Positions 8,164 through 64,000 of a stretch of DNA of 64,000 nt are shown one piece after another. Source of the stretch: Laspinema olomoucense D3b (GTDB taxonomy: Bacteria; Cyanobacteriota; Cyanobacteriia; Cyanobacteriales; Laspinemataceae). The notes under the pieces are model-generated. The model saw only the letters and a list, made by a program, of their open reading frames with translations. It made no database searches and was not told the origin of the DNA. Positions within the stretch are counted from its first letter, which is position 1, and each line of letters opens with the position of its first letter. The stretch lies in NCBI RefSeq assembly GCF_025370785.1, contig NZ_JAMXFA010000001.1:107902-171901 (forward strand), given 5' to 3'. Position numbers and translations under genes: made by a program.

Positions 8164-8234
8164 TTGATAAACCTTTCAAAACCGAATTCCGTATCACTCG
8201 TTAACCCCTATCTCTCAAAAGTCATTAATCCTGG

Positions 8235-13073: not shown

Positions 13074-13188
13074 CCCCACTCAATGCCGATAAAAATCCGT
13101 AGGTTGACATAAACCAATCGACCCCCTCTAATCCAGGTGAATCGAGGGGGTTTTATCCCAAATTTTAGGTTAAGAGGAGATAGCCACC

Positions 13189-13410
13189 ATGTTTGAACTA
13201 GGAAGTTGGAAAGACAATCGCTCCTATCAAGAATGTTTTGCCGAAGGCTGGATTGAAGGTTGGTTTGACGGGTGGAAGCAAGGCCAGATTGTGTTGATCA
13301 AACACTTGATTTGGAAAGGGGTCAGTTTAGAAGAAATTGCCCAGACGGTGGAATTGCCGTTAGAGTTAGTTGAGAAAGTAGCCCTGTTGACGAAGGGGAA
13401 GGAAGATTAA
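13189..13410 (+). pseudogene. partial 3' duplicate of the preceding Rpn-family gene (DUF4351-like fragment)
   Basis: MFELGSWKDNRSYQECFAEG... is nearly identical at the DNA level to the 12880-12940 region of the upstream gene, including the RBS-like GAGATAGCC(G/A)CCATG. Confidence 0.5.
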
Positions 13411-13486
13411 ATCTATTGTTTCATCACCGGCTAATGTTTGAATTTAAGCCAGTGATGGGGTGACTAAATCCGAATTTTTTTCAACT

Positions 13487-16333: not shown

Positions 16334-16531
16334 GAGCCTATATGTCTACACCTACTCCGATTGTAATAATTTATCATGAACGGGTGAGGAATTTAATAAA
16401 TTTTTGTAACAGTTTGGAAGGAGGGTGCAATCCATCTGTTTTTAATGGAATGTCTACAGTTATTCGCGTCCATTCTTGGGAGTGCGTCAGCGTTTTACGC
16501 ACTCCTGATAGCCTTTGACTGTTAAACGATG

Positions 16532-17011
16532 TTAACTTTCCTCGATGACAGCGGAGATTTCTGTTGCCATATTGATTAAAAATGCGGCAGAATCTGGCTT
16601 GCCATTTTCAGTCAACATTTGAGCAATTTGGGCGAGGACTTGGACGAAACCTCGGTCTACTAAATCGGAGTTGTTATCTAAAAGAAGTGCCACATCTTCC
16701 CCTCGATCGCAAGCTAAAATACCTTCAATGAGTTTAATATAGGCCCCGGTCCGATCGCTGCGATCGGGGTTCATCATTTCCGTCGATTGTCCAAAGGCGA
16801 GTTGTAATTGTTGGGCTAAATCCCCTAAAAAACTAGCGGCTTCTGTTTCCCCTTCGGTTTCGGCTTTGGCGGCTGCTTGTTCCAAAATGTAGATAAATTC
16901 AACATCGACTAAATCTTCATTCTGTCGAAGTATATTTATTTCTTCTCCTTCGGGACAATCTAATAATTTTTGAATGAGTTGGATATAAGCCCTGATCCGG
17001 TTATCAGTCAT
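16532..17011 (-). CDS. hypothetical protein built from two tandem ~75-aa repeats
   Basis: The two repeats are IRAYIQLIQKLLDCPEGEE...LVDVEFIYILEQ and GAYIKLIEGILACDRGED...LVDRGFVQVLAQ. It lies immediately upstream of, and co-oriented with, the WD40 kinase. Confidence 0.5.
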   Translation of the reverse strand: MTDNRIRAYIQLIQKLLDCPEGEEINILRQNEDLVDVEFIYILEQAAAKAETEGETEAASFLGDLAQQLQLAFGQSTEMMNPDRSDRTGAYIKLIEGILACDRGEDVALLLDNNSDLVDRGFVQVLAQIAQMLTENGKPDSAAFLINMATEISAVIEES

Positions 17012-17264
17012 CGGGTTTTTTTAGGATTTTACTGTTTTTATGATACGTCAAACTTTACCGCAATTTCGGAGGGATATTGCTTAGAGGTTAACGAGGCGAT
17101 CGCAGGGTTGGGGTTGAATGGGGGGAACGATTGAAGTCGTTACTACGAACGAATAAAGAGAACGAGTGAAGTCATTTCCCATAAGACTTTCAGTCGGTTT
17201 TAACCGACTTAAGCTATGAGGCGGGGGTTTTAACCCCTGCCGGGTTTTTTTTGGATTGAATCAA

Positions 17265-17351
17265 CGGAGAGGGGGAGATTCGAACTCCCGGAACCCTTGC
17301 GGATTCATCTGATTTCAAGTCAGACGCAATCGACCACTCTGCCACCTCTCC
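17265..17351 (-). tRNA. tRNA-Ser (anticodon UGA), class II with long variable arm
   Basis: The reverse complement folds as a cloverleaf. The acceptor is GGAGAGG/CCTCTCC, the anticodon loop is CTTGAAA, the variable arm is long, and the T-loop is GGGAG-TTCGAAT-CTCCC. Confidence 0.85.
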
Positions 17352-17426
17352 AGTGCGGCTCTGTTTTATCTTACCCCGAGTTGTCTGGAATTGAAAGAGG
17401 CAAGGGGGGAAAAAATCCAGTCGCCC

Positions 17427-18359
17427 CTAGGCGAGGGTGGCAACGGATTCCGGGTGTTGTTGATAGAGTACCTCTTCGGAGGCGATCGCGAAATCTTGAT
17501 CCACCCAAACCAGGGAGGCGCGAGTCACGGTGTTCCCTTGTAATTCAACCAGGGAGAAGTTCCGCAATTGACCCGTTTCTGTAGGAACAATCCGGGGAAC
17601 GCGGGCTGCATTCAGGTAAACAGTGCCATCGCTGGTGGTATGCAGGGATTTCCGCAAGCGGGTTTGAGTGTGGCGCAGACGGTGGTGCATATGTCCGAAA
17701 GTGACGAGGGGGATGGTTTTGCCCATTTTGCGGGTTTGGGCGATCGCATCGGCAAAATCCGGGTCCCCAAAGTCGCCTCCCAGAGGTTTCCAGTCCTTGC
17801 CGCAGGGGTCTTCTGGGCGATCGCCTAACCCTTTGGGTCCATTATGTCCCAGAAAAATAATCGTATCGAAGCTGGCGCGTTTGACTGCTGCCATAATGCG
17901 ATCGGTAGACTCCACAAAACTGCTAACATCGCAGCGATCGCTATAAAAATCCGCATATTTCCATTCCGACCCTCCCCAGCTAAAAGGACGGGACCCCACC
18001 ACCGTCAGTCCAAACTGGGGAAAATCTAACTTGCCATACCCCACATGAGTCTCGCCGAGGATATCCAGTTGAGACTGGACCCAATCCTCACTGCGGCGAT
18101 TGTAGGGACAGGTTTTGCGACCCCAGTCCGTCGCCGTGAACCAAGCGTCATGGTTTCCAAACGTCACCGCTTTGGGAATGTCCAAGGAGGCGATCGCCCG
18201 AACAATCGGTACCGACTCATTCCCAAAATCCCCTACAAATAGCGCTAAATCAACCCCAAGACGGGTTAGCGCTTCCCCATCTGCCGCTTCCCATTGTTCA
18301 TGTACATCTCCAACAATGGCAATTTTAATCTGACTTTTCTGATAATTGTGTCCGAACAT
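17427..18359 (-). CDS. calcineurin-like metallophosphoesterase
   Basis: The motifs IAIVGDVHEQW, FVGDFGNE and GNHD are present. Confidence 0.8.
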   Translation of the reverse strand: MFGHNYQKSQIKIAIVGDVHEQWEAADGEALTRLGVDLALFVGDFGNESVPIVRAIASLDIPKAVTFGNHDAWFTATDWGRKTCPYNRRSEDWVQSQLDILGETHVGYGKLDFPQFGLTVVGSRPFSWGGSEWKYADFYSDRCDVSSFVESTDRIMAAVKRASFDTIIFLGHNGPKGLGDRPEDPCGKDWKPLGGDFGDPDFADAIAQTRKMGKTIPLVTFGHMHHRLRHTQTRLRKSLHTTSDGTVYLNAARVPRIVPTETGQLRNFSLVELQGNTVTRASLVWVDQDFAIASEEVLYQQHPESVATLA

Positions 18360-18905
18360 CCCTGTTTCTCTCGCTGCTCTTTATCTAGGATAGGCAATAG
18401 AGCGCCTGAATGTGAAGAAACTCCAGCCTTTAGCGGGTTCAAAATTAGGGATGAACCGTAAATCCCTTCTGCCGGTTCCTCTGGCAATTTCCCCTGACTC
18501 GGGTATTTTTATTCAGAACAAGGAACAAATATCTTTGTGGGGAGAGGCTTTCCGGCTTCCCCTTCCCGACTCTTGGCATTACTCCCCTCTTTCTTAGCAA
18601 TCTTATCTGCCCAGTCCCTGTCTGGGTTAGCTGGATAATTCCCGATTTGCAGGTGCAGCCCCCCTTCCCCTAAGTGGGAAACCGGAGTGAAGCTCCCACG
18701 TTCTAAAATAGAAAGGGAGCCTCCAAACTTTCCATGTGTCCTGACACGACCCTGAAGCCAAGAAGAGGTAGGGGCGATCGGGTTACAGTGATGTAAGCAG
18801 TCTATTAAAAACGATAGGCTAGAAATAAGACAAAGGCGTTCAGGCTAGTTTTTAGCTGAATCGCCTTTCGTTGATCATAGAATGAGTAGAAACTAAGAGA
18901 TACAG

Positions 18906-19373
18906 ATGGCGCAACAAAGCGAAGGGATCAAGATAGTCAGTGATAATCGCCAAGCCCGTTTTTTATATGAAATTCTGGAAACATACGAAGCGGGGATTGC
19001 ATTAAAGGGGACCGAGGTCAAATCCATCCGGGGAGGGAAGGTGAATATCCGAGATGGGTATGTCTTGTTTCGGGATGCCGAGGCGTGGCTGCTTAATGTG
19101 AATGTTTCGCCGTATGAGACGGCCAGCCTCTATTTTAACCATGAGCCGACCCGGAGTCGAAAGCTTTTGCTACACCGCGATCAAATCCGCAAGTTGATTG
19201 GTAAGGTGGAACAGAAAGGCTTGACAATGGTACCGACAAAGATGTATTTCAAGCGTGGGTTAGTTAAGGTAGAGATTGCTCTAGTCCGAGGCAAGCAACT
19301 CCACGATAAGCGAGCGGCGGTGAAAGAACGGGACCACAAGCGGGAGATAGAACGGGCGTTAAAGCAGTATTAG
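18906..19373 (+). CDS. smpB: SsrA-binding protein
   Basis: The stretch NRQARFLYEILETYEAGIALKGTEVKSIRGGKVNIRDGYV is present, and the ORF is 155 aa. Confidence 0.92.
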   Translation: MAQQSEGIKIVSDNRQARFLYEILETYEAGIALKGTEVKSIRGGKVNIRDGYVLFRDAEAWLLNVNVSPYETASLYFNHEPTRSRKLLLHRDQIRKLIGKVEQKGLTMVPTKMYFKRGLVKVEIALVRGKQLHDKRAAVKERDHKREIERALKQY

Positions 19374-19461
19374 CGCTTCTAGCCGACTGCTTCCCACTCC
19401 CGGACTATCTAGGGCAAAGGCAAATGATGACCCCCGCTCCGATGAGCGGGTTGAGGGTCTT

Positions 19462-19644
19462 CTATCTGGAATATCTGCGTTTGCGTCTGCGTGCGATTTC
19501 TTTGCGCTTACGCTTTTCTAAGGGAGTTTCAAAGTGACGCTGACGCTTCATGTCTGCATAAATTCCCTCTTTTGCAACTTGACGCTTAAAGCGGCGCAGT
19601 GCAGATTCGATCGCTTCATTTTCGCCTACAACGACTTGAGTCAT
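19462..19644 (-). CDS. rpsU: 30S ribosomal protein S21
   Basis: The ORF reads [23 protein letters not shown]...RKRRYSR. It is convergent with smpB, and a hairpin at ~19420-19450 lies between them. Confidence 0.92.
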
Positions 19645-20602
19645 CCGGTATCCTCCTGAGTATCAACAATAAGATGGGCGGGTGAAAAGTGCTCTACCCC
19701 AACTCGGGTAAGCTTAATATCCCAGTTACGGAAATAGCTGATGGAGGCGATGGTCCTCTGTCGAGCCGTTGGCGAGGGTGGGGTTCACAATCGAAGGCTC
19801 GCAGATAGGAGTAAAAAGCCCTCAAATCGCGCTTTGTCCGAAACTGGCTATCTGTTATGAATTGGCTTTAAAACCCGATAGTGTTTGTTGGCTTGTCTGT
19901 ATCGCAACAAACACGACAATCAAACTTTATCTGCGAAATATATTTTAACACAGAATGCCTCGGGTTCAGGAAAAATCCCTGATTGCCAGTCATTAGCTCA
20001 TGCGATCGCCGCCCATTAAATTGTGCTCTCCCCTTAAGGTGAGTGCAAGCGGGCGATCGCCTCACGCATTCAGAGAAATCGGATTGTAGCATGAGAAGGG
20101 GGATTACGTTTCCCTGGGTGTTTCTCTAATCCGGGAGAACCTTGGGGTTCTGTACAGCCCAAAGCCCGATGAGCAGTCTCCCCGTCCAGTTCCCCTCCAG
20201 GGTGGGAATGGGGAGTCTTGCTCGCCCTTGCGGTAGGGGCCGCACCTGGTCATAATCCGATCGCCCTGGTCCCGGGTTGCTGGTCCTGGGTGGCTAGTCC
20301 CTGGTCCCTTTTCCCTTGTGCCTTTACTAAAAAATATTAAAACACTGGCCCCATTTTAATATTTTCTGCTTAAAACTCCTAAAATTAATATAAATACTTT
20401 GGGGTTGGGTAATCCCTAAGCAAATTAACCTGTAGAACCTAGGATAACCGCCCCAAGGCACCGGGCTGATGTTCGGGCTTCGTGACTAAAAATTTTTCGG
20501 TGCAGTAGTTCGCTCATGCCTGGGAGCAGGGGTTTAGTCTCCCCCCACAATCCGGGTAGCCCCGATTAAAATTACCATCCTACTGAAGGGTAGAACTCAG
20601 CA

Positions 20603-49184: not shown

Positions 49185-49359
49185 AAGGCGATCGCCCCTG
49201 GTACAATTCACTCCACTTTAACCCGGTTTCCCCTCAGAAGCCGGGTAATTTTTCACGGATTTTCCACAAGACTACAGTCATGAGCTTTCTTCTTTTGTAG
49301 TAACGATTTCAGTCCTTATCCCCCACCCCAACATTCCTAATAACAACATCTTTTACCTG

Positions 49360-51415: not shown

Positions 51416-51645
51416 AAAGAGCCATTGTCAATTGATAATGGAACCCGGAACTCTAAAAAAAAACTACACGATGTTCGTGTAGTTAGAACCCAAATATCTC
51501 ACTAAATTGTTAATTTAAGAAGTAATTTAAAGTGGAATTGATGAGGGAATTTAATGTTTGAATCCAGAGATAAAGACGGTCAGAGTTTAAATTTTGAATT
51601 GTTTTGAGAAAGCATCAGGGGAGCAAAGGTTAAGGGTTCGGTTGA

Positions 51646-51846
51646 TTACTCGGTGACTTTAATCCATCCCCGGCGCACGGCGTGCTGTAGACGGTCGATC
51701 GCCGCATAGTCTTCAGAATTGAGGGTATTTTCCACAAGGGCAGCCATCAGACCTTCCCGTTGATTGAGCGTTAGGGAACCGGCATTCCAGGCTTGACCGA
51801 AGACTTCAGCAATCAGGGAGGTGGAGTAAAGGGTGGGTACTTGCAT
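51646..51846 (-). CDS. small hypothetical protein (66 aa)
   Basis: It is an isolated ORF with a plausible start. It has no recognisable motifs. Confidence 0.3.
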   Translation of the reverse strand: MQVPTLYSTSLIAEVFGQAWNAGSLTLNQREGLMAALVENTLNSEDYAAIDRLQHAVRRGWIKVTE

Positions 51847-52389
51847 GGCGAGGTGTGGTTGAACTCTACCCTTTTAATATCTCCTGAAATTCCAGCTTTT
51901 ACAGCGATCGCAAGGGTGGGTAGCTCGTGATAATCGTCAAAGTGGGCGGTGATTTAAAGCCCAGGGCAACAGGGGATCGGATCAGATATCACTTGTGATC
52001 TGCATCACCGAAAACCGAAAAGCAGCCCCCGAATCAGACCCCGTTATCATCCCCCAGAGGCCAAAAAGTGGGAAACGGTTTAAATTTTCAAGGGAGTCAA
52101 TTCTCCGAAAAGATCTGGATAGACCGACTGCTCTAATGTATTGCTAACCCAGACGAGAATGCCACCCAACTTGGAAAAGCGCGATTCCCTGAGCGAAGCA
52201 CTGGATTCTTTCTGGCGATCGCTTGCCCGACTGGGAAACGGTAAGCAACGCCTGGAACTGCTGCCTAATCGGGTCGGTCAGCATCTCGAATCCCTCAGAA
52301 TTTAGAGTAGATACCGGGATGATGGAATTCCCAATCTACGCTAACGTTATTAAGATTGTTGATGCAACGCGGGGTATCCAGCGGGATAG

Positions 52390-54126
52390 ATGATGAAATT
52401 GATGCGCTTAGTATTCCGAATTTTCCAGCAAAGACAACCGAAGCGCCGCATGGGTGCCACAGGTCAGTTATCAACAAACCTGTGGTCCCTATGTCACCGC
52501 ATCGTGCGTACTTTTTTCACGGGAAATCCACTCAAAATCCAGTTTGCAGTCTGGGGTTGTTTACTCTTGTTATTGCTCAACGTTCCACCGGGGACCGCGC
52601 AGTATCCCCGCCCAGTGATGCCGCCTGCGGTTGCTCCCCCCACGGCAGTCCCTGCACCCATCAACAACCCGGGAGGTGAGCGGAACTCCCCTGAAATGAC
52701 ACAACTCCAATTTCCACTCCAAGGCGATGATCGGGTTCAAAAGCTCGTCAGTGTCGGCCATCAGCACGAATTTAGAGGGGTCTGGGTGGCCTCGGTGGCC
52801 AACATTGACTGGCCCTCCGCGAGCAATTTGTCCGTAGACGAGCAAAAAGCGGAACTGCTGGAAATCCTGGACCAGATACAATCATTAAATTTGAATGCTC
52901 TGGTACTCCAAATTCGGCCCAATGGAGATGCCTTCTATGCGTCGCAAATTGAGCCTTGGAGTGGATGGCTAACGGGAACTCAGGGACAAGCGCCCCAACC
53001 TTTTTATGACCCCCTGGAGTTTGCGATCGCCGAAAGTCACAAGCGCAATATCGAGCTTCATGCTTGGTTTAATCCTTACCGCGCTAAAATGCCGGGAGAA
53101 AAATATGGCCTGACTCCTAATCACATGGCCTCTATGTTTCCCCAATATGCCTATCAATATGGGGATTTACTCTGGATGGACCCCGGGGCAAAAGAAGTCC
53201 AAGACCGGGCTTATAACGTGATTATGGATGTGGTCCGTCGCTATGATATCGATGGCATTCATATTGATGACTATTTCTACCCCTATCCACAAGAAGGGGT
53301 GCGCTTCCCCGATACCGCCACTTATGGCGCCTATCAAAACAGTGGCGGAACGCTTTCTCTGGCCGATTGGCGCAGAAAAAACGTCAATGATGCGATCGAA
53401 CGGATTTGGAACGGGATCAAAACCGAAAAACCCTACGTTAAATTTGGAATTAGCCCCTTTGGAATTTATCGTCCGGGCAAAGCTGAGGGAATTGTCGGAT
53501 TTGACCAATTTGATGGACTCTATGCCGACGTTAAAAAATGGCTAGATGAAGGGTGGCTAGATTATCTGGCTCCTCAACTCTATTGGCGGATTGACCCCCC
53601 CCAACAAAGCTATCCCGTCTTATTAAACTGGTGGAGTCAAAATAATCCCCTGCGCCGTCATATTTATGCCGGAAACTATCTGAGCAAACTTGATGGCAGT
53701 GGGTGGCCAATTTCTGAGTTTGAAAGACAGGTGGAAATTTCTCGCCGCGAAGTGGATAAACTTTCCCTGGGCAATATTTTCTTTAGCATGAAAGTGTTTA
53801 AGGAAAATTGGTTCGGAATCAACGAGCGTTTTAGAGCAGCAGTCTATCCGTCTCAAGCGCTGCCTCCTACCATGCCTTGGTTAGATGCAGTTCCTCCAGC
53901 CGCCCCAACGGGTGTTCGTGCGGGTGATAATGCGATCGCCTGGGATTCTGGTAATAATGATGTTCGCTACTGGAGCGTTTATCGTCGCAACGGGAATGAA
54001 TGGCAACTGGTCAAAGTTCTGAATTCCGCCACCAATTCCCTCACCGGATTACAACCGGGAAGTTATGCCGTTTGTAGCGTAGACCGCATGGCAAATGAAA
54101 GCCCTGGAGTTGTGGTTTCTTTATAA
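52390..54126 (+). CDS. GHL10 family protein with a C-terminal Fn3/Ig-like domain, secreted
   Basis: The signal-like stretch is FAVWGCLLLLLLNVPPGTAQ. The core motifs FRGVWVASVANIDWP and NALVLQIRPNGDAFYAS are followed by a C-terminal beta-sandwich tail. The start is uncertain. Confidence 0.7.
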   Translation: MMKLMRLVFRIFQQRQPKRRMGATGQLSTNLWSLCHRIVRTFFTGNPLKIQFAVWGCLLLLLLNVPPGTAQYPRPVMPPAVAPPTAVPAPINNPGGERNSPEMTQLQFPLQGDDRVQKLVSVGHQHEFRGVWVASVANIDWPSASNLSVDEQKAELLEILDQIQSLNLNALVLQIRPNGDAFYASQIEPWSGWLTGTQGQAPQPFYDPLEFAIAESHKRNIELHAWFNPYRAKMPGEKYGLTPNHMASMFPQYAYQYGDLLWMDPGAKEVQDRAYNVIMDVVRRYDIDGIHIDDYFYPYPQEGVRFPDTATYGAYQNSGGTLSLADWRRKNVNDAIERIWNGIKTEKPYVKFGISPFGIYRPGKAEGIVGFDQFDGLYADVKKWLDEGWLDYLAPQLYWRIDPPQQSYPVLLNWWSQNNPLRRHIYAGNYLSKLDGSGWPISEFERQVEISRREVDKLSLGNIFFSMKVFKENWFGINERFRAAVYPSQALPPTMPWLDAVPPAAPTGVRAGDNAIAWDSGNNDVRYWSVYRRNGNEWQLVKVLNSATNSLTGLQPGSYAVCSVDRMANESPGVVVSL

Positions 54127-54322
54127 CTTTAAATTGGATTAAATTAGCCCCCCACCCTCAAAGGCGGGGCTATCAGAAAAAAGCCCTCCTGAGCGGGCTT
54201 TTTTTATTGCTCATAGTCACAACTGCCGTCGTTTCTTCCATACCGCAGTAAAATAGGGGGTAAAAATTGTTATATTAAATTAAAGAATATCCCATTGAAT
54301 GGGAGTGTTTCGAGGTAAAATA

Positions 54323-54880
54323 ATGGTCCAAAAGTTTTATACCTTAACCGATGAAGAACTGATGCAAATCAGTTCACAAAACCCTGAATTGAGATTTGAG
54401 CGGAATGCAGATGGAACGTTAGAGACTATGCCACCCACTGGAGGAATTTCTAGTAATCGAGAACTGAAAGCAGGGGCCTATCTTTTGTATTGGGTAGAAC
54501 AGCACGATTTGGGGGAAGTCTTTAGTTCAAGTTGTGGGTTTAAATTAGCCAATGGTGCAGTGCGATCGCCTGATGCTGCGTTTGTGGCAAAAGGACGTTT
54601 ACCCGAAGGATGGGATCAGGGAACCGATGAATTTTTAAATCTCCCTCCCGATTTTGTCATAGAAATTCGCTCCAAAACTGACGGGCTAGAAAAACTTAAG
54701 GATAAAATGCAAGAATATATTGAAAATGGGGTGCAGTTGGGATGGTTAATCGATCGCCAAAATCAACAGGGGTTCGTTTATCGCGCTGACGGTTCCATTA
54801 CCCCATATCCCGCAACCGCAATCTTAAATGGTGAAAATATTGTCCCGGGGTTTACCTTAGCACTCAAATCCCTACTTTAA
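54323..54880 (+). CDS. Uma2-family (DUF820) putative restriction-endonuclease-like protein
   Basis: The ORF reads MVQKFYTLTDEELMQISSQNPELRFERNADGTLETMPPTGG...DFVIEIRS, which is a PD-(D/E)XK-like core. Confidence 0.8.
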   Translation: MVQKFYTLTDEELMQISSQNPELRFERNADGTLETMPPTGGISSNRELKAGAYLLYWVEQHDLGEVFSSSCGFKLANGAVRSPDAAFVAKGRLPEGWDQGTDEFLNLPPDFVIEIRSKTDGLEKLKDKMQEYIENGVQLGWLIDRQNQQGFVYRADGSITPYPATAILNGENIVPGFTLALKSLL

Positions 54881-54902
54881 GGCTGGGGTAAATTAGACCT
54901 CT

Positions 54903-56351
54903 TTATTCTAACGTCTTAACTGTCAAGACTTGAGGCGGGACGGAATCCGGAGGATAAAGGAAATCAACCTGGACCGATCGCACCTCATTCGGGGCTAAAT
55001 TTAAGGTTACTAATGGATCGAGAATCTGTCCCCGACGATGCCATAAATGTAGATAACGGGTGATGTTTTCTCCATTATCATCGGTGTAACGTAAGCGGAC
55101 CGTTGAGCGGAAAAAGGGATAATCCCAAGGGGGTTGACGAAAGATTAATCCACCTTTAGATAACCGTTCTTCTTTCATCGGGGTTTCTAAGGTAACTGCC
55201 ACTTTTTGCGGGCGATCGCTCTCGTTTCGTAGGGGGAGGGTTAAATCATAATGCACCCCATAGTTCGCATGGGATTCATAAGCCGTATCTGGATATCGAA
55301 CTAACAGCTTGGCCGCTTGAATTTGACCTGTTCCTAATGTCCCAGCGCGTAAGGTACTAATTACATAAGAAACGGCTTTTTCCGGTTCAGGAAGCGCTAA
55401 ATACTCACTTCCTTCATCCACTAAATTAGCCTGCCATTTTGACCCTTCCTGAACTCCTGCAACCCGGCTATAAATCAGTTGACCGCTGACTTGTTCCGGT
55501 GGACTAGGGGTTTTATCTCGGGGTAAAGCTAGATTTCCCCTAGTTAAAAGTTGCTGCCATTCTTCAAGATTAGGTGCGCGTTCAGTTCCCTTAGAATCCG
55601 TTTTAGCATATAGTGCTAAGGATGCTAAATATACCGGCCCATCACTCTGTAAGCGCAGAAAAGTAGAACGACCATTAATCGGTTTTTCTAAGCCTTTGAC
55701 TGGAATCGGATGATTCATCAACATCCGACTTTCTCCCGGGGGAATAACTAAGGTTTCTGGTAAATCCCCTTGTCTAATTCCCCGCAATACGTTATCAACA
55801 GCACGAATTCCTGGACCTGAATAAATCTCCCCATTAGGATTATCACTCATGGCGGGTTTCTCTTGAAAGGGAGCATCGGGTTCTAGTAAATAACTAGCAC
55901 CTTCCGGTACAGTTACCGTAACAGGTTCCGGGCCTGGATTGTTAACTATAATCCCGATATAGAGGGTTTGTAAATTGGGGGGAGTATGGGTAAAGTGATG
56001 AGCAAATAGCTCAAATTTATCGTTAAAGGCAAAGTTAAGATGGGCAGCGGGGACTTGTTTGCCTTCTGGGGGAAAGGTGGAGAGTAAAATGCCTTCAACT
56101 TTGACCCATTCGGGGCTGTTACTATTAAACATGGGGACTTGATCTAATCCACCGGGAAGCGATCGCACCACGTTGGATTGCACAATTTCTTGAGGGGATG
56201 CCGCTTGTGCAGAGTTGGGCGGTTTACCATCAGGAATTCCCGCATCAATTCCTGGCTGGTTGGGGTCAACCTTCGTAATACAGCCGCCTGTAAATAGCGC
56301 TAACAGCCCACAGAAACCTATAGCAATAAACCGACTGACCGAAATCTGCAT
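54903..56351 (-). CDS. hypothetical lipoprotein (cyanobacteria-type DUF)
   Basis: The lipobox is FTGGC, and the ORF is 482 aa with no enzymatic motifs recognised. Confidence 0.5.
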   Translation of the reverse strand: MQISVSRFIAIGFCGLLALFTGGCITKVDPNQPGIDAGIPDGKPPNSAQAASPQEIVQSNVVRSLPGGLDQVPMFNSNSPEWVKVEGILLSTFPPEGKQVPAAHLNFAFNDKFELFAHHFTHTPPNLQTLYIGIIVNNPGPEPVTVTVPEGASYLLEPDAPFQEKPAMSDNPNGEIYSGPGIRAVDNVLRGIRQGDLPETLVIPPGESRMLMNHPIPVKGLEKPINGRSTFLRLQSDGPVYLASLALYAKTDSKGTERAPNLEEWQQLLTRGNLALPRDKTPSPPEQVSGQLIYSRVAGVQEGSKWQANLVDEGSEYLALPEPEKAVSYVISTLRAGTLGTGQIQAAKLLVRYPDTAYESHANYGVHYDLTLPLRNESDRPQKVAVTLETPMKEERLSKGGLIFRQPPWDYPFFRSTVRLRYTDDNGENITRYLHLWHRRGQILDPLVTLNLAPNEVRSVQVDFLYPPDSVPPQVLTVKTLE

Positions 56352-56787
56352 AAAATTTCACTCGCAGTAATTCTGGTTTCTATGTTCTGACTCCGTGGAC
56401 CTGCCGCAGAACCGCCCATGTCCTCTCGGTAAACCCGACGCCCGGTTGAATCGATCAGAATGGCGATCGCCACAGAAAAAAGGATATAGGGGAAGCAAGA
56501 GGAATAAATATTTAATTCTTAGGGGGCCTGTTAGAATTTTGCCCGCCGTCTTATAACGTGAGGCTGGATCTGAAGACTCATCGATTGAGTCAACCTGGAG
56601 GAAAGTCACCCCTTCAAAGGGTTAAAAAATAGCTGACTGTCTCGACTCAGCCTCTTGATAAATAGATTAACCGCAATTTAGGGGTTTAATGTTATTGATG
56701 ATGCAGTTTTAACCGGGTTGACTCCTCAAACTTATGAGGAATCCAAATGGATGGATAAGTTTTAAGGACAACCCGGCTAGGATGGCA

Positions 56788-57156
56788 TTAGCGCACTAAA
56801 GTTAGCTCTTTTTCTTCCACAACCGATGCCTGGGGTTCGGTGACTTCCGTGGGGAACACTTCTGATGAGGGAATCAACTCATCCGTTGAGGAAAATTCTG
56901 GATGTTCGGGACTGCGATCGCCTGCCAGACGACGGATTGCCAAAATACTAGCACCGGCTGCCAATACTGCACCGCCTAGAAAAGCAGCTTTCGTCGTTCC
57001 GTTATGAAATCCTGTAGCATTGGATAGGTTTTGAGTGGATTGATTTAGTCCTTTCGCAAAGGGACAGCCTGATGCCTGGGCCTCGGAGGTGATTAAAATT
57101 CCTGTGGCAACAGCGGCAGTAGAAAGAATTCCCGCTAAAACGTGCTTAGGTTTCAT
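56788..57156 (-). CDS. hypothetical secreted/membrane protein
   Basis: The signal peptide is MKPKHVLAGILSTAAVATGILI, and an internal hydrophobic segment AAFLGGAVLAAGASILAIRR is present. Confidence 0.35.
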   Translation of the reverse strand: MKPKHVLAGILSTAAVATGILITSEAQASGCPFAKGLNQSTQNLSNATGFHNGTTKAAFLGGAVLAAGASILAIRRLAGDRSPEHPEFSSTDELIPSSEVFPTEVTEPQASVVEEKELTLVR

Positions 57157-57690
57157 CAGCAATTTTTTAAAAGAAATGACAACGCTTTTCCCTATTATGT
57201 ACAAAATTTTTAAAATGGCAAGGGTTCTGAAGAAAAGCCCCAATGTCTGAAATTTACACAGGGGACTAACTCAGGTTTTGGGCGGCAGGGCTCACCCCCA
57301 ATTGAGTTACGGAGGGCAGAGGTAACGGGATTTAACTCCTGAAGTCTAGATCGGCGTCTGTCTCCAGGTTGATTTTTGGACAAGTTTCCCCGATGGCTAG
57401 GTGGGGACATTATCTAACGTAAAATTAAAAGCAAGGGAGAAAACCCGCTGGTGTTCCATGCCGGTTGCGATACGACTCCTGATAATTTTATTGAGTCGGG
57501 GTGGGGAATGTTTCGGAATTGGATAGACGGGGGTTGAATCTTGGTGATTCGAGGAGGGGCGACTTAAAAGGTGAAAATTTCTTAATCTTGACTTTTTTAT
57601 CTCTTCAGTCGCCCAACTGTTGCCCGAGGGGAGGGTCTTGCCGGGTCCATTGGGGTTCTATAAATTGTAGAAAAATGATAGAGGAAGTCG

Positions 57691-58329
57691 ATGACGGTGA
57701 GAATAATTTTGTTTGATTTTGATGGGACAATTGCGGATACCCTAGATTCTATTGTAAAAATTACCAATCGCTTGGCTGGAGAGTTTGGATATAAAAAAAC
57801 AACTCAAGAAGATGTGGAGTATTTGAGGAATATGAATTCAATGCAAATTATTAAAACCTCGGGTATTCCTATTTTTAAAGTTCCTTTTTTATTGCAGATG
57901 GTTAAGCTAGAATTAAATCATGAGATTCAAAACTTAAAACCTATTCCCGGTATTGTAGAAGCCTTGCAAATTTTAAACCATAAAGAATATAAGCTGGGCA
58001 TTGTAACTTCTAACTCTCTGGAAAATGTTAAAGGATTTTTAGAAAGAAATGAAATGACTAAACTTTTCAGCTTTATTCATGCGGGTTCCACCTTGTTTGG
58101 GAAAAACAAAGTCATTAAAAACTTTTTGAAAAAAGAAGGAATTCCCCCGGAAAATGTAATTTATATTGGAGATGAAACCCGAGATATAGAGGCGGCTAAG
58201 AAAGCTAAAATTAAAGTAATCGCGGTGAGTTGGGGATTTAATTCTAAAACGGTTTTATCTAAACATAACCCTGATATAGCGATTAATAACCCCCAAGACT
58301 TGATTGAGGCGATCGCCCGCTTACAGTAA
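57691..58329 (+). CDS. HAD-superfamily hydrolase (phosphoglycolate-phosphatase-like)
   Basis: Motif I is ILFDFDGTIADT and motif IV is IGDETRDIEAA. The gene is AT-rich. Confidence 0.8.
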   Translation: MTVRIILFDFDGTIADTLDSIVKITNRLAGEFGYKKTTQEDVEYLRNMNSMQIIKTSGIPIFKVPFLLQMVKLELNHEIQNLKPIPGIVEALQILNHKEYKLGIVTSNSLENVKGFLERNEMTKLFSFIHAGSTLFGKNKVIKNFLKKEGIPPENVIYIGDETRDIEAAKKAKIKVIAVSWGFNSKTVLSKHNPDIAINNPQDLIEAIARLQ

Positions 58330-58897
58330 TCTAGCAGACCTCGATTATCCCGAGGATTCGAGGATACTTTTTCAAGGTCAAATTTTGAGTCAGTTTGCGA
58401 CTCAAAACGACCCCAATGATTTAGACTAGAAATCACGGTCTGGCCTGGGTCGGAAAATCCCCCGAGGATGCGACTCCCCTATTCCCTCAAAAAGACGGAA
58501 TCTGGTTTACCTGGGTCGGCTAAATCTGCCCCATCAAGAGTCTGGGGTTTGCTGACAAAGCCTGCCCCAGCTACGGCTGTCAACATCAAGCAGGTCTTTG
58601 ACAATGGGATTTAGTCGGAGACAGTTACCCAGATTATGGCCCTTTCCTTGGTGGTGAGGGCTACAAATTTTGTCAAGAAAGCCGGTAACCATTCCTGGGA
58701 TGTAAGGCTGTAAGGCTGCCCTGGTAAGATGGAGGCAAAAGAGGTAATTCCTGTTTCAGAATACTCTACTCTGAAAAACCCCAATTTATGAAGGATTATT
58801 TAATCCAAATTGAGATTTTTTTCAGCAAGAGAGATAAAACTAGCAGGAATGAGGGAGATAAATAATCTAAAAAAAGGGTGCATAAATAGGAAAAGTT

Positions 58898-61417
58898 ATG
58901 GCAGAGATCAATCCAGTAGCTTGGTTGCAGGAACGAACGGCATTAAATCGTTTATCGGAACCTGTATTAACAGCGATCGCCCAAGTCCTCCAGGAGCAAA
59001 TTTTACCCGCAAATCAGGCGATCGCCGAACCGGAGAAATTCCCCACCGGATTCTACATCCTCCGGGAAGGAGAGTTACAAACTTCCCTGAAAAATGCCCC
59101 CCCTTCCTCGGATGAATTGAGCCCCGGTTGCACGATTAACTTACGGGCATTACTCTTAGACCAACCTCCAGAACAGACGATTTCTACCGTCACCGAATCT
59201 AAATTCTGGTTTGTCCCAGCGGACCGAGTTCGGGAATTAGTCCGGCAATACCCAGAAATCACCCAAACCTTGACCCGACAACTCGCCCAAGAACTTGCCG
59301 AGGTGTCGAGTGCGCTGACTTATGAACAACAACGACAAGATGCTTTACGGCCTTATTTTGTCACCAAAGCAAAACGGGGAATTGTGGGCAGAAGTCGCTA
59401 TGCTCAACGTCTCAGACAGCAGATTAGAGAGGCGGGGTCGGATAGGCGATCGGTCTATATTTTCGGGGAACCGGGATTAGAAAAAGATAATATTGCTGCC
59501 CTGATTCACTATGGTTCCCCCCACCGTCAGCAACCGATCGTCAAAATCAACTGTGGGATTCTCCAAAAAGGGGGGGCAGAACTCTTTGGACGGGCGGGAG
59601 GGAAACCAGGACTGATCGAATGGTTGGGAGAAGGGACCCTGATTCTCAACAACATTGATGAACTGCCCGAGGAACTGGTTGAGGCAGTCGCCACCCTATG
59701 CAAAACCGCCACTTATAGACCCGTCACCCGAGAAGGGGATGATCCCGCAGCCCCTAAATCCACTCCTGCCAAAATTCTAGCCATCTCAGAAAAACATCTT
59801 CCGGCGATCGCCCCGCATCTGGACCAAACCCTCAAAGTTCCTCCCCTGCGAGTCCGAAAAGCCGACATTAGCGCTCAAGTCGAGTATTATATTAGCTTGT
59901 ACTGTCGCGCCAAAGCGCTGAGCAAACCCCAACTCACCCCAGAAGCTCTCCGTCGGCTACAATCTTATGATTTTCCCGGCAATATTCGGGAATTGCAAAA
60001 CTTAGTAGAACGGGCGATCGTCCAGTCAGATTGCGCCCGAGAATTAACGGAAGAAATTTTTTGGGCAGCCCAAGGGAAGAAAAAACGATTCCGCTTGAAT
60101 TTACTGAATGCTTATCCCCAATTGCGCCATTTTCTTCGCAGTCCTTGGTGGCCCGATCGCATTAACTATGGTTTTACCGTCGTTGCCTTCGCCCTAGTCG
60201 TTGCCATCTTATTTCTGGGTCCGCAAACTCGCGATCGCAACTTTGCCCTCAACTTCTTTTGGGCCTGGTGGTGGCCGTTAATTCTATTCGCCTTTCCCTT
60301 TGTCGGTCGCTTGTGGTGTGCCGTTTGTCCCTTTATGATTTATGGAGAAATTACCCAAAAAATCTCCGAAAAATTATTAAAACACAACCTCAAACCCTGG
60401 CCGCGACAGCAAGCCGAAAAATGGGGCGGCTGGTTTCTGTTCGGCTTATTTACCCTAATTTTCCTGTGGGAAGAACTCTGGGATTTACAGAATACGGCCT
60501 ATCTCTCCGCCTGGTTACTCCTCTTAATCACCGCCGGGGCGATGATTTGTTCCGCCATCTTTGAACGGCGGTTTTGGTGTCGCTACCTCTGTCCCATTGG
60601 CGGCATGAATGGACTGTTTGCCAAACTTTCCATGACCGAATTAAGAGCACAACAAGGAACCTGTTCCGCCGAATGCAGCACCTATCAATGTTATAAAGGC
60701 GGTCCGCAAAAAGGGGAAGGGATGGAAACCAATGGCTGTCCGCTCTATTCTCATCCCGCCCAGTTAGAAGATAACCGGGATTGTGTTTTATGCATGACCT
60801 GTTTAAAAGCCTGTCCCCATCGGTCCGTTGAATTCAATCTACGACCTCCGGGAATTGATTTGTGGACCACTCATCAGCCTCGTAGCTATGAAGTCGCCTT
60901 GTTGCTGTTACTTTTAGGGGGAATATTTTTGCATCGATTGCCCGAGATTAATACAGTCCTGGGATTAGGCATTGATTTAAGCCAATTTTGGCCGCATTTG
61001 GGATTGTCATTGGCCGCATTAGGGATTCCTGCCGCCTGGGTATTACTTGCCGGGGTGGCCATTGTTGGACTAAACCGCACCTTCAAATCTAAACCCTTTG
61101 TCCAATTAGCATACGGATATTTGCCCTTAGTTTTAGGGGGAAGTTTAGCTCATTATTTGCGCTTGGGATTAGGAGAAGCGGGACGCATTTTACCCGTCAC
61201 CTTTGCCACCTTTGGGTTGAGTGGGGAAGGGTTGCCCGTGTGGATTGCACATCCAGCAGTGATTACCTTTTTGCAAGGAACCACCTTAATTGCTGGAGTG
61301 GGGTTGAGCATTCTGTTAACGCAAAAAATTGGCCGAGAGTCCCTGCGATCGCTGCTTCCCCAACATTTAGCCACCCTCGGATTAGCTTTGGGGATGTGGG
61401 TTATTATCGTGAGGTAA
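58898..61417 (+). CDS. multidomain protein: cNMP-binding domain + degenerate sigma-54-activator-type AAA+ domain + NapH/MauN-like membrane polyferredoxin
   Basis: The CAP effector-like domain has FYILREGEL. The sigma-54-interaction-like core runs GRSRYAQRLRQQIREAGSDRRSVYIFGEPGLEKDNIAALIH ... FPGNIRELQNLVERAIV, with the Walker A degenerate (GEPGLEKD) and no GAFTGA. The C-terminal membrane part carries the Cys motifs CAVCP, CRYLCP, CSAECSTYQC and CVLCMTCLKACP. Confidence 0.7.
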   Translation: MAEINPVAWLQERTALNRLSEPVLTAIAQVLQEQILPANQAIAEPEKFPTGFYILREGELQTSLKNAPPSSDELSPGCTINLRALLLDQPPEQTISTVTESKFWFVPADRVRELVRQYPEITQTLTRQLAQELAEVSSALTYEQQRQDALRPYFVTKAKRGIVGRSRYAQRLRQQIREAGSDRRSVYIFGEPGLEKDNIAALIHYGSPHRQQPIVKINCGILQKGGAELFGRAGGKPGLIEWLGEGTLILNNIDELPEELVEAVATLCKTATYRPVTREGDDPAAPKSTPAKILAISEKHLPAIAPHLDQTLKVPPLRVRKADISAQVEYYISLYCRAKALSKPQLTPEALRRLQSYDFPGNIRELQNLVERAIVQSDCARELTEEIFWAAQGKKKRFRLNLLNAYPQLRHFLRSPWWPDRINYGFTVVAFALVVAILFLGPQTRDRNFALNFFWAWWWPLILFAFPFVGRLWCAVCPFMIYGEITQKISEKLLKHNLKPWPRQQAEKWGGWFLFGLFTLIFLWEELWDLQNTAYLSAWLLLLITAGAMICSAIFERRFWCRYLCPIGGMNGLFAKLSMTELRAQQGTCSAECSTYQCYKGGPQKGEGMETNGCPLYSHPAQLEDNRDCVLCMTCLKACPHRSVEFNLRPPGIDLWTTHQPRSYEVALLLLLLGGIFLHRLPEINTVLGLGIDLSQFWPHLGLSLAALGIPAAWVLLAGVAIVGLNRTFKSKPFVQLAYGYLPLVLGGSLAHYLRLGLGEAGRILPVTFATFGLSGEGLPVWIAHPAVITFLQGTTLIAGVGLSILLTQKIGRESLRSLLPQHLATLGLALGMWVIIVR

Positions 61418-61480
61418 AAAAAGATGGAGATGCATTCGCAGCCCCTCTGGAATCAGAATTAACTCAGGAGTAACGAGATC

Positions 61481-62578
61481 GTGCTCGATAGTCTCATTAA
61501 AATTACCGTGATCGGCGTCGGGGGTGGCGGGTGCAATGCCATCAACCGGATGATTGCCAGTGATCTGTCTGGGGTTGAATTTGTAGGGATTAACACCGAT
61601 GCTAGAGCTTTAGCCCAATGCCGTGCCGATCGCCGCATTCAAATCGGGCAGAAACTCACCCAGGGGTTAGGAACTGGGGGAAATCCCCTCATCGGACAAA
61701 AAGCGGCGGAAGATGCCAGAAGTCAAATTGCCGCAGCGATGGAAGGGAGTGATTTAGTCTTTATTACCGCAGGGATGGGAGGCGGAACCGGCACAGGGGC
61801 CACACCCATTGTCGCGGAAATTGCCAAACAACAAGGGGCACTCACGATTGGGGTCTTGACTCGTCCCTTTGCCTTCGAGGGGAAACGCCGCAGTCATCTT
61901 GCCGAGGAAGCGATTACGGCATTACAGAGTCGGTTGGATACAGCGATCGCCGTTCCTAATGAGAAATTGTTGTCCGTGATTTCTGACAATATGCCGGTTC
62001 AGGATGCCTTTGGCGTGGCGGATGATATCTTGCGCCAAGGGGTACAAGGGATTTCTGATTTAATTGTGATTCCCGGGGTAGTGAATGTGGATTTTGCCGA
62101 CGTGCGATCGGTGATGAGTCGCGCCGGAACCGCTTTACTGGGGATAGGAATTGGTCAAGGACAATCTCGCGCTAGACAAGCTGCGATTTCGGCGATGTCT
62201 TCGCCCTTTTTAGAGTGTTCAATTAACGGGGCCAAAGGGGTTGTTTTTAATATTACCTGCGGCATGGATCTCACCTTACATGAAGTGAATGTAGCAGCAG
62301 CAGAAGTCTATAACGTAGTGGATCCGGATGCGAATATTATTTTCGGTGCAGTGATTGACGATCGCCTGCATGGAGAGATGAGAATGACCTTAATCGCTAC
62401 TGGATTTTCCAATGAACCGCAGGTTTCTCTTCCTCAAACCCGGGTAGTCCCGACTCCCCCCCCTCAATATCGGGTTGCCAAACCTCCAACCCCCACACCT
62501 CAACCCGAGATACCGCCTCAAAGTTGGCCCGGATTGGACCTTCCTGATTTTTTTCCCCCTCGGCGATCGCCTAGGTAG
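61481..62578 (+). CDS. ftsZ: cell division protein FtsZ
   Basis: The motifs [13 protein letters not shown] and [17 protein letters not shown] are present, and the C-terminal peptide LDLPDFF follows. The start is a GTG at 61481 with a perfect AGGAG RBS at 61466-61470. Confidence 0.9.
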
Positions 62579-62630
62579 TTGGTCATTGGTCCTTTGTCCT
62601 TAGTTGATGGGGAGGACTGGGAAGATTTTT

Positions 62631-62951
62631 CGTAGTAACGACTTCAGTCGTTTCCGCCTTACTGGCCTTTATACGGAATCCGGTTGTGATAGGTCTATAA
62701 AAACCTGCAGCGTCCAGCCCGGAGGCTACACAGACGTAGACGCGCTAGCGGCTTCGGTGAAGGGTAGCCCGAGAAGCGCGGGCTGAAGAGAAAACCGACT
62801 TTTAAAAACCGGATTTGGTATTACTCCAAGTAACGCGATCCTTAAAGAGGCGATCGCGCCAGTCCCCAAACAACAGGTACTTAATCCGCTCAGGGATAAG
62901 TGTCATGGCGTCCGCCATCACAAGAGAGCAACGACTGAAGTCGTTACTACG
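62631..62951. mobile_element. MITE (~321 bp) with perfect 22-bp terminal inverted repeats
   Basis: The left end cgtagtaacgacttcagtcgtt (62631-62652) and the right end aacgactgaagtcgttactacg (62930-62951) are exact reverse complements. The interior carries the core agcccgagaagcgcgggctgaagagaaaa shared with 7957-8163, and there is no plausible CDS inside. Confidence 0.55.
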
Positions 62952-63067
62952 AACAATCTCCTCAATCCTCCCTATAGCAGTCTGACCTGCACCTGGGAAC
63001 CGGGGGTGGGTATCAGTTTTTTGATTGAAATCCCCATTCATAAGACGGCCAAAGACTCTTCAATGGC

Positions 63068-63898
63068 TTAAGTGTCGTCATGGGCGTAACGACCATAGAG
63101 GAAGTCGAGGGCTTCGTTGCGTAAGTCGTAGTATTCCACCTGTTTCGTGAGTCGGGCGCGATCGCGGGGCCTGGGGAAGGGTAAGTCTAGGATTTCGCCA
63201 ATGCGGGCGGCGGGGCCGTTGGTCATCATGACGAGGCGATCGCCCAGGAAGAGGGCTTCGTCGATATCATGGGTAATCATGAGGATGGTGACTTTGTGAT
63301 CGGCCCAGATTCTTAAGAGTTCTTCTTGGAGTTCTTCCCGGGTGATGGGATCGAGGGCACCGAAGGGTTCGTCGAGAATGAGAACTTTGGGGCGCACGGC
63401 CAGGGCGCGGGCGATGGAGACTCGTTGTTTCATGCCTCCGGAGAGTTCTTTGGGTTTTTTGTCGGCAGCGTCACTCAATCCGACGAGTTCCAGATGTTCT
63501 CGCACGATCGCCGATTTCTCCCGTTGTTTGAGTTTGGGAAAGACGGAGTTGACGGCCAGCAAGATATTATCGTAGGCGCTTAGCCAGGGGAGGAGGGCGT
63601 AGTTTTGGAAGACCACCATGCGATCGGGACCGGGTTCCTCAATCCGTTGTCCTTCGAGGAACACTACTCCTTCACTGGGTTGACGGAAACCGGACACCAT
63701 ATCTAGGAGGGTCGATTTGCCACAGCCGGAGTGACCAATCAGGCAAATAAATTCTCCTTCGCGGATGGTGAGTTGGATGTTATCGAGAACGGGATAGGGA
63801 CCTTCTGGGGTGGCATAGGTTTTACTGAGACCGTCAATGACGAGGTAGGAGTCATTGGTGCTGTGGGGATGGCCGCTGGAGGTTGTTAAGGTTTGCAT
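63068..63898 (-). CDS. ABC transporter ATP-binding protein (NitT/TauT family, NrtD/CmpD-like)
   Basis: Walker A is GHSGCGKST, the ABC signature is LSGGMKQRVSIARAL, Walker B is ILILDEPFGALD, and an H-loop is present. The ORF is 276 aa. Confidence 0.85.
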   Translation of the reverse strand: MQTLTTSSGHPHSTNDSYLVIDGLSKTYATPEGPYPVLDNIQLTIREGEFICLIGHSGCGKSTLLDMVSGFRQPSEGVVFLEGQRIEEPGPDRMVVFQNYALLPWLSAYDNILLAVNSVFPKLKQREKSAIVREHLELVGLSDAADKKPKELSGGMKQRVSIARALAVRPKVLILDEPFGALDPITREELQEELLRIWADHKVTILMITHDIDEALFLGDRLVMMTNGPAARIGEILDLPFPRPRDRARLTKQVEYYDLRNEALDFLYGRYAHDDT

Positions 63899-63900
63899 GG

Positions 63901-63962
63901 GTTAAAGGGAAGGCAAAAGGCAAAAGGCAAAAGGCAAGAGGCAAGAGAAGGCAATAGGCAAT
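63901..63962. repeat. STRR-type heptamer array (GGCAAAA/GGCAAGA/GGCAATA)
   Basis: The sequence ggcaaaaggcaaaaggcaaaaggcaagaggcaagagaaggcaataggcaatagcc lies immediately upstream of the ABC ATPase start. Confidence 0.7.
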
Positions 63963-64000
63963 AGCCTGAGCGCAACGCTTGCCGGAATGCATCGCTTCGG

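Follow-up and report, generated by a model that had tools for sequence, protein, structure and literature searches.

The Intergenic Element and Its Locus

The stretch of DNA analyzed here (hereafter the window, to which all unprefixed positions refer) comprises 64,000 nucleotides of contig NZ_JAMXFA010000001.1 of the cyanobacterium Laspinema olomoucense D3b, and it carries close to its right-hand end a 489-bp intergenic spacer that houses a 321-bp repeat element (62631-62951) between two convergent genes. A preliminary description of this DNA had placed the element between ftsZ and an ATP-binding cassette (ABC) ATPase gene, which is borne out with the refinement that the ftsZ gene is a paralogue, and had credited it with no coding capacity, in agreement with the absence of any Pfam match to the four small open reading frames (ORFs) that overlap it. 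The same description had interpreted the element as a 321-bp MITE (miniature inverted-repeat transposable element) with perfect 22-bp terminal inverted repeats (TIRs); of this, it stands that the DNA is non-coding, repeated, derived from mobile elements, and bounded by inverted ends, but the unit has neither a target-site duplication (TSD) nor a second full-length copy. The 321-bp unit is instead a composite of a doublet of approximately 165 bp, built from repetitive extragenic palindromic (REP) sequences, and, nested in it, a MITE of 149 bp that belongs to a different family (Table 1). Very probably, 62631-62951 is a REP doublet of the kind that bears GTAG tags and is associated with REP-associated tyrosine transposases (RAYTs), into which a MITE that duplicates a TNA target was inserted later.

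The two ends of the unit, CGTAGTAACGACTTCAGTCGTT (62631-62652) and AACGACTGAAGTCGTTACTACG (62930-62951), are reverse complements of each other without a mismatch over 22 nt, as had been claimed for them, and the inverted repeat reaches 46 nt outward at 89% identity (62607-62652 versus 62930-62975) because the outer flanks are inverted runs of G-rich and C-rich 9-mers. The palindromic core that had been seen within each end is, more precisely, a complete hairpin with the stem AACGACT/AGTCGTT and the loop TC. Such hairpins belong to the REPs, whose archetype is the REP and the bacterial interspersed mosaic element (BIME) of Escherichia coli; the GTAG-type REP, a short stem-loop with a 5-13-bp stem and an unpaired GTAG tag, here occupies 62632-62652 and the reverse strand of 62930-62950, and its tag is usually preceded by GTTC or GTTT. 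Judged by their sequence, the ends of the 321-bp unit are GTAG-type REP hairpins and not the transposase-binding TIRs of a cut-and-paste MITE, because the same REPs also occur alone, in long tandem arrays, and flanking RAYT (Y1/HuH) genes. A TSD was sought at the borders of the 321-bp unit, as the preliminary description had proposed, and is absent: the flanks are TTTTT and AACAA plus the G-rich and C-rich runs, which are inverted and not direct. Likewise, apart from the orthologous copies that three related assemblies carry, no second full-length copy was found among the 118 + 7 related loci sampled, parts of the unit matching separate loci individually.

Table 1. Repeat modules and neighboring genes in the window (positions in nucleotides; TSD, target-site duplication; TIR, terminal inverted repeat).
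Feature	Position	Strand	Description and basis
Solo REP, same family	6756-6779	-	core search
Second family-B MITE	8071-8196 (body 8074-8193)	-	TCA duplication, between tpiA and folP
Short tandem REP array	17126-17176	-	good unit 17126-17149, degenerate unit 17161-17176; downstream of a tRNA gene
Solo REP, slightly degenerate	49294-49317	+	core search
FtsZ-family gene	61481-62578	+	Pfam domains Tubulin and FtsZ_C
Left outer flank	62607-62627	.	G-rich 9-mer-type repeats GATGGGGAG GACTGGGAAG, mirror of right flank
Left REP	62628-62652	+	TTTC-GTAGT-AACGACT-TC-AGTCGTT: GTAG tag, 7-bp stem, 2-nt loop
Hairpin A, left arm	62655-62665	+	CGCCTTACTGG; cut off from its partner by the MITE insertion; helix covaries
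TSD copies	62669-62671 and 62821-62823	.	TTA; flank the nested MITE
Nested family-B MITE, 149 bp	62672-62820	+	TIRs TACGGAATCCGGTT (62672-62685) and AACCGGATTTGGTA (62807-62820)
Central hairpin of nested MITE	62766-62784	+	AGCCCGAGAAGCGCGGGCT; sequence
Hairpin A, right arm	62826-62837	+	CCAAGTAACGCG; alignment, covariation
Doublet spacer	62838-62899	+	HIP1 site GCGATCGC; homologous to other doublet spacers (CAGTCCCCAAGCAGGTA)
Hairpin C	62900-62926	+	TGTCATGGC-gtcc-GCCATCACA, then AGAGC linker; alignment, covariation
Right REP	62930-62954	-	plus strand AACGACT-GA-AGTCGTT-ACTAC-GAAC; minus strand GTTC-GTAGT-AACGACT-TC-AGTCGTT
Right outer flank	62955-62975	.	C-rich 9-mer-type repeats AATCTCCTCAATCCTCCCTAT, mirroring left flank
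ABC ATPase gene	63068-63898	-	ABC_tran domain

The REP Doublet as a Recurrent Unit

Pairs of REPs in the arrangement GTAG...CTAC, 125-168 bp in length, were found in approximately ten other copies, which occupy six further places on a total of six contigs from four assemblies: in Laspinema palackyanum (L058, L069, and L113; sampled loci are designated by L and a number), in Oscillatoria sp. HE19RPO (L108, four in tandem), in an uncultured Laspinema (L079), and in the metagenome-assembled genome (MAG) that contains L120 (two in tandem). All share one plan, in either orientation, in which a REP is followed by hairpin A (CGTTACTTGGC-loop-GCCAAGTAACG), a spacer, hairpin C (CTCGTGTGATGGC-loop-GCCATCACACGAG), and a second REP. 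Once the MITE is subtracted, the doublet of the window aligns end to end with these copies (alignment A3, from which a partly related 200-bp unit at L101 with a variant REP at its end was excluded). In this alignment, 96% of the cells in the four helices are paired, a value that drops to 19-44% in slid controls, and the inner hairpins A and C show double-sided changes in eight pairs and 23 cells, a level reached by none of 500 shuffles. Similarity extends to single modules, with 62828-62975 being 84% identical to L050 and hairpin C also preceding a REP in L011, L016, L108, L058, L113, and L120. The doublet is thus organized in the manner of a REPIN, the REP doublet that forms a hairpin: its inverted REPs and spacer can fold as one hairpin, and it is a repeated unit with a homologous interior. 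No target duplications were found around the doublets, the outer flanks of which are often inverted runs of G-rich and C-rich 9-mers, a type of flank also seen at other REP loci.

The Nested MITE

Self-comparison of the window revealed that 62671-62821 resembles an intergenic block at 7993-8199. The inner element 62672-62820 is a genuine MITE, as it is small, non-coding, and multi-copy and has both TIRs and a TSD. Copies of this family, denoted family B, measure 119-153 bp, carry 14-bp TIRs, and are flanked on both sides by an identical TNA (TTA, TGA, or TCA) in all 11 instances, which represent 10 independent sites. Duplications of 3 bp with the sequence TNA are typical of some groups of the IS5 family of insertion sequences (ISs), and an IS1031-type element of that family would be the likely autonomous partner. 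Given its 14-bp TIRs and TNA duplication, the nested MITE was presumably moved by a DDE-type transposase; in the sampled DNA, no transposase ORF lies between any two family-B termini spaced 0.3-3.5 kb from each other. The nested copy is approximately 30 nt longer at its center than the usual 119-122-bp copies, and the hairpin located there is the hairpin-forming core that had been noted in the interior of the element: the structure is real, but it belongs to the nested MITE and not to the outer unit. When the MITE body and one copy of TTA are taken out, the arms of hairpin A come together again, and the MITE therefore landed in the loop of that hairpin, which is why the unit of the window has twice the usual doublet length. 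The other ten family-B copies do not lie in hairpin A and give no sign of targeting beyond the TNA site.

The second family-B copy of the window lies in a spacer (7880-8210, between tpiA and folP) that is itself a composite palindromic block, consisting of the MITE and further hairpins (GAAACCCGCACCCTGGAAG repeats and AAAGCCCGAGAAGCGCGGGCT). A related MITE of 127 nt with a TTA duplication fills a site in L. olomoucense GCA_025370815.1 (L209) that is empty at position 20037 of the window. Its core is like that of family B and its termini differ (GGGAACTCCATAAAATAAA), suggesting that MITE families share cores but swap ends.

Copies and Distribution of the REP Family

The preliminary description had stated that the end sequence recurs in this genome, with solo copies at three sites. 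Recurrence is confirmed by the 16-nt REP core: with at most two mismatches, it has six sites in the window, where shuffled sequence predicts 0.01, and the 64 kb contain five REPs; the three sites are real, and their coordinates had been slightly off, with a second unit following the first at one of them (Table 1). When the 21-mer AACGAYTGAAGTCGTTACTAC was searched for in one genome per species, at least 118 DNA stretches were returned, and the exact 21-mer occurs 237 times among the 118 stretches listed. Among the matches listed, those from cyanobacteria belong to L. palackyanum, Oscillatoria sp. HE19RPO, Phormidium pseudopriestleyi, and related MAGs, and the others belong to many MAGs of Chloroflexota (Anaerolineae) and to a few of further phyla. 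Allowing at most two mismatches, 50 cyanobacterial stretches contain 190 REPs, of which 117 are arrayed with a period of 31-37 nt, 36 have an inverted partner (counted when it lies within 450 nt), and 37 are solo. Because it behaves in all three ways, the sequence is unlike a transposase-binding TIR.

Several features of these copies deserve mention in their own right. The exact 21-mer is present in MAGs of at least six phyla, namely Cyanobacteria, Chloroflexota, Acidobacteriota (Terriglobia and Blastocatellia), Zixibacteria, Poribacteria, and Acetothermia, and in Chloroflexota it usually forms hetero-doublets with the variant GTAGTGGCGACTTCAGTCGCT at a distance of 13-20 nt. Head-to-tail arrays in Laspinema and Oscillatoria reach at least 11 units, each composed of a REP, GAAC, and a variable linker of 6-11 nt (for example, L012 1731-2065, L015 21-257, L084 4568-4810, L103 7083-7313, and the array at 17126-17176 of the window). 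A CRISPR-like reading of the 31-37-nt arrays was discarded since the segments between repeats measure 10-15 nt and are repetitive themselves. Following GAAC(A), REPs are very often trailed by C-rich 9-mer runs (ATCCTCCCC / ATCTCCCCC) and by heptamers (TGACAAA / TGACCAA) resembling short tandemly repeated repetitive (STRR) sequences.

Association of the REPs with RAYT Genes

In six of the sampled stretches, a tblastn search detected an ORF of approximately 200 amino acids near the REP motif, directly adjoining it in five. The first probe of this search was an approximate E. coli RAYT sequence that served as a lead only, and every match was tested again with the NCBIfam model NF047646 (REP-associated tyrosine transposase). 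All six ORFs match this model, four of them above its cut-off (86.8-91.3 bits) and two just under it (73.7 and 78.2 bits), and they are assigned as RAYTs because this model was decisive, the Pfam family Y1_Tnp having produced only sub-threshold matches to the RAYTs that adjoin REPs. In L074 and L072, the RAYT gene stands between inverted REPs with GTAG tags pointing outward, in the same geometry as the element of the window. An alignment of 12 RAYT proteins (A2) has invariant residues at N95 H96 Y97 H98, W137, Y157-H159-Y160-N161, and P40-P41-H42. The RAYTs adjoining REPs are approximately 198-205 amino acids long, with the HuH motif NHYH, W[YH], YIHYNP, and a proline-rich N-terminus (PPHP); by these motifs and by length, they would fit TnpA_REP subclass 2.8 (Table 1 of PMC6006769).

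A profile scan of metagenome contigs for RAYTs yielded 80 further loci. Within at most approximately 200 bp of the gene, a hairpin of REP format is found at the 5' end in 72, at the 3' end in 64, and at both ends in 57, and a REP with the AACGACT stem is present within approximately 200 bp in 63 of the 80; the background, measured more than 400 bp from the RAYT gene, is 35 matches in 168.7 kb. The commonest unit at these loci (43 instances), GTAGT-AACGACT-TC-AGTCGTT, equals the ends of the window element exactly. RAYTs of the same clade are common in cyanobacteria, including Allocoleopsis, Prochlorothrix, Coleofasciculus, Microcoleus, Nostoc, and Oscillatoria sp. PMC 1051.18, the last of which carries, to either side of its RAYT gene, doublets in the same format with different stems (L121).

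Some RAYT ORFs themselves contain REP units (GTAGTAAAGGCTTTAGCCCTT and similar) in frame, as observed at position 3074 of L062 (a cyanobacterial MAG) and position 7078 of L115 (a related MAG), where the insertions contribute approximately 20-30 extra residues after the HuH motif. In-frame REP insertions have been described for some genes of subclass 2.8 (Quentin et al., 2018, PMC6006769).

Comparison of Strains and Neighboring Genes

Three related assemblies carry the element, and the spacer that houses it is 502 bp long in all of them, against 489 bp in the window. In one of these comparisons, window 51478-64000 is 99.3% identical to contig JAMXFB010000024.1 of L. olomoucense GCA_025370815.1; the two copies of the element differ by a 9-bp one-unit indel (GATGGGGGA) just outside the left REP and by a 4-bp GCGG indel in the central hairpin. 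Change of the same kind affects the REP array at 17126-17176, which is three units longer in L208 (+31 and +73 nt, at 17156-17177). Across the window, identity to GCA_025370815.1 is mosaic (93.9% over 1-19940, 98.9% over 19358-40168, and 99.3% over 51478-64000), a pattern in the sequence that suggests recombination between Laspinema lineages.

No clean empty site for the doublet was found, as the three related assemblies carry it and the locus in L120 is rearranged. In L120 (92% identity), homology covers ftsZ and the left REP and stops after that. Next come two tandem doublets; an ABC-transporter operon of approximately 6.3 kb is missing, and the DUF928 gene found past this operon in L. olomoucense is the next gene. 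The repeat block is therefore the site of a rearrangement breakpoint. The operon indel (L119 11500-17877 versus L120 2090-2540) spans an NMT1/NrtA-like binding protein, a permease, two ABC ATPases, and a HisKA fragment; one of its junctions has REP doublets, and close to the second is a family-B MITE (L119 17557-17678).

The gene to the left of the element (61481-62578) encodes a divergent FtsZ paralogue of 365-366 amino acids, with 68-70% identity to ordinary cyanobacterial FtsZ (approximately 420-430 amino acids), and L. olomoucense also possesses a canonical FtsZ of 428 amino acids (P0144). Only two close relatives of the paralogue were found, one (an L. olomoucense protein) with 100% identity and the other with 96%. 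The paralogue is preceded by the gene for an 839-amino-acid protein (58898-61417) with cNMP-binding, sigma54-activator AAA, and Fer4_5 membrane domains.

Origin of the Element and Competing Explanations

The architecture can be accounted for by a scheme of three steps. Two GTAG REPs in inverted orientation, with their tags pointing outward, would have formed a REPIN-like doublet of approximately 165 bp containing two hairpins and a spacer of approximately 60 nt. This doublet would then have been excised and inserted as single-stranded hairpin DNA, without a TSD, by a REP-associated Y1/HuH transposase acting in trans; single-stranded, TSD-free movement is general knowledge for Y1 transposases of the IS200/IS605 type and for RAYTs. 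Finally, a MITE with 14-bp TIRs and a 3-bp TNA duplication would have entered a TTA in the loop of hairpin A, bringing the length to 321 bp. What the sequences show is the anatomy, the family to which each module belongs, the TSD of the nested MITE, and the adjacency of REPs and RAYT genes in other genomes; the single-strand mechanism we infer by analogy with these transposases, and the element may also affect the 3' ends of the convergent genes. Because the REP of the window is identical to REPs that flank RAYT genes elsewhere and its copies are homogeneous, mobilization of the doublet by a RAYT resident in this genome is likewise to be inferred from the sequences compared.

Several observations weigh against this account. 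Searched by tblastn with six RAYTs, the 64-kb window, approximately 100 kb of L. olomoucense-type loci, and approximately 50 8-kb blocks of Laspinema and Oscillatoria, which together represent a small fraction of those genomes, contained no RAYT gene, and in neither of two queries of protein databases did the 120 best RAYT homologues include an entry under the name Laspinema. The window contains only one doublet. The element is at fixation in every one of the three related assemblies and gives no sign of mobility at this locus. The invariance of the REP hairpins in alignment A3 is partly a selection effect, the loci having been chosen by an exact match to the 21-mer. Lastly, the doublet exceeds textbook REPINs in length and contains internal hairpins, and it could have spread by recombination or duplication instead of transposition; the REPINs known from Pseudomonas are smaller than 125-168 bp.

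Three other explanations must be weighed against a RAYT-type REP doublet with a nested MITE. If the unit were a classical cut-and-paste MITE, that is, an internally deleted IS of 321 bp with 22-bp TIRs that was moved by a DDE transposase and left solo TIRs as remnants, its perfect inverted ends, intergenic location, non-coding character, and strong fold would be expected; this explanation is nevertheless extremely improbable, given that the flanks are inverted with no direct repeat, that the 118 + 7 related loci provide no second 321-bp copy and match its pieces separately, that the supposed TIR is by itself a complete hairpin occurring in tandem arrays of at least 11 units and flanking Y1/HuH RAYT genes with identical sequence (63 of the 80 loci), and that an unrelated nested MITE, bearing a TIR and a TSD of its own, makes up half of the length. 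It is somewhat easier to imagine, although still improbable, that there is no unit at all and that two solo REPs, inserted independently, face opposite ways by chance on either side of ordinary intergenic DNA, at a spot prone to recombination. REPs do occur solo, and the loss of homology after the left REP in L120, where the operon of approximately 6.3 kb is absent, identifies a breakpoint; however, the interior is homologous over its full length to approximately ten doublets at unrelated loci in four assemblies, the inner hairpins covary, and L120 itself carries two tandem copies of the doublet at this position.

A functional RNA or DNA structure, such as a bidirectional terminator or a 3' stabilizer of the mRNAs of the convergent genes for the ftsZ paralogue and the ABC ATPase, kept for that function and not as mobile DNA, is very improbable as the explanation of the element and is in any case compatible with the doublet origin. 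The convergent location and the compensatory changes in the inner hairpins speak for such a role, as does a fold far more stable than those of shuffled sequences (z = -7.9 and -9.1), and REPs have been described as lying mostly downstream of genes and acting as RNA elements (PMC3733652). A strong fold is nonetheless what any long inverted repeat would give, and many unrelated loci carry the modules, which also form tandem arrays. Moreover, an Rfam scan of the element at gathering and permissive thresholds assigned it to no family, permissive matches being at chance level only, and a terminator consensus scan of the element gave one weak terminator-like site, which does not exceed the chance expectation.

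The strangest aspect of the system is the base-for-base identity of the REP across Cyanobacteria and Chloroflexota, together with the array habit in Laspinema. The RAYTs that adjoin REPs with the AACGACT stem have diverged to approximately 41-45% identity, and REP-RAYT systems are usually seen as vertically inherited. It may be proposed, tentatively and with more doubt than conviction, that the identical REP GTAGTAACGACTTCAGTCGTT is both the cognate of a RAYT clade of Anaerolineae and a high-copy sequence of Laspinema-type cyanobacteria, through inter-phylum transfer of a REP-RAYT system or an unusually hard constraint on the hairpin, and that Laspinema has switched to arrays, possibly with no resident RAYT.

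Comparison with Known Systems

GTAG-tagged REPs occur as singletons, inverted dimers, and clusters, are linked to RAYTs, and are found in Cyanobacteria and Chloroflexi (Di Nocera, De Gregorio & Rocco, 2013, PMC3733652). The REP of the window resembles them in its unpaired tag beside a 7-bp stem, its 2-nt TY loop, its intergenic location, and its occasional occurrence within larger palindromes, whereas the sequence family GTAGT-AACGACT-TC-AGTCGTT has no match in the passages of that account considered here (PMC3733652). The GTTC/GAAC tail, the G-rich 9-mer runs, and the mostly head-to-tail arrays (31-37 nt) of Laspinema are peculiarities of the REP studied here. The doublet shares with the REPINs moved by RAYTs a long hairpin, its repetition as a unit, a non-autonomous nature, and the lack of a TSD (Bertels & Rainey, 2011, PMC3116915; PMC3337134) and departs from them in its length of 125-168 bp and its two extra internal hairpins. 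In contrast to the RAYTs of proteobacterial REPINs (groups 2 and 3), the clade identified here would correspond to subclass 2.8 (NHYH), which it resembles in its motifs, its length of approximately 199 amino acids, its long REPs with 5' GT[AG]G, and its occurrence in Cyanobacteria and other phyla (PMC6006769); unlike in the subclass 2.8 set, most of the present RAYT loci come from Anaerolineae (Chloroflexota).

The inner element is comparable to the cyanobacterial MITE Nezha (Zhou et al., 2008, as summarized in PMC3184786), with which it shares a size of 120-150 bp, TIRs, short direct repeats, a stable fold, and a multi-copy state, and a related family likewise has filled and empty sites between close strains. 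The insertion of a mobile element into the palindrome of a REP cluster, of which the window offers one case, parallels the IS and MITE insertions into REP hairpins exemplified by IS1397 in that source (PMC3184786).

Implications

Nothing observed here alters the current view of REP/RAYT or MITE biology, and the element represents the ordinary repeat biology of a filamentous cyanobacterium. The perfect 22-bp "TIRs" are nevertheless an annotation trap: they mark a REP hairpin and not a transposase-binding end, so that looking for an IS partner would lead nowhere and the partner to be sought is a RAYT gene. A family of REPs and REP doublets is now documented in Laspinemaceae, and its sequence is tied to an RAYT clade of the NHYH type. 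Finally, through the nesting of REP doublets, MITEs, and 9-mer runs, large intergenic blocks of palindromic structure arise in cyanobacteria, and these coincide with length polymorphism at the level of strains and with the indel of a 6.3-kb operon.

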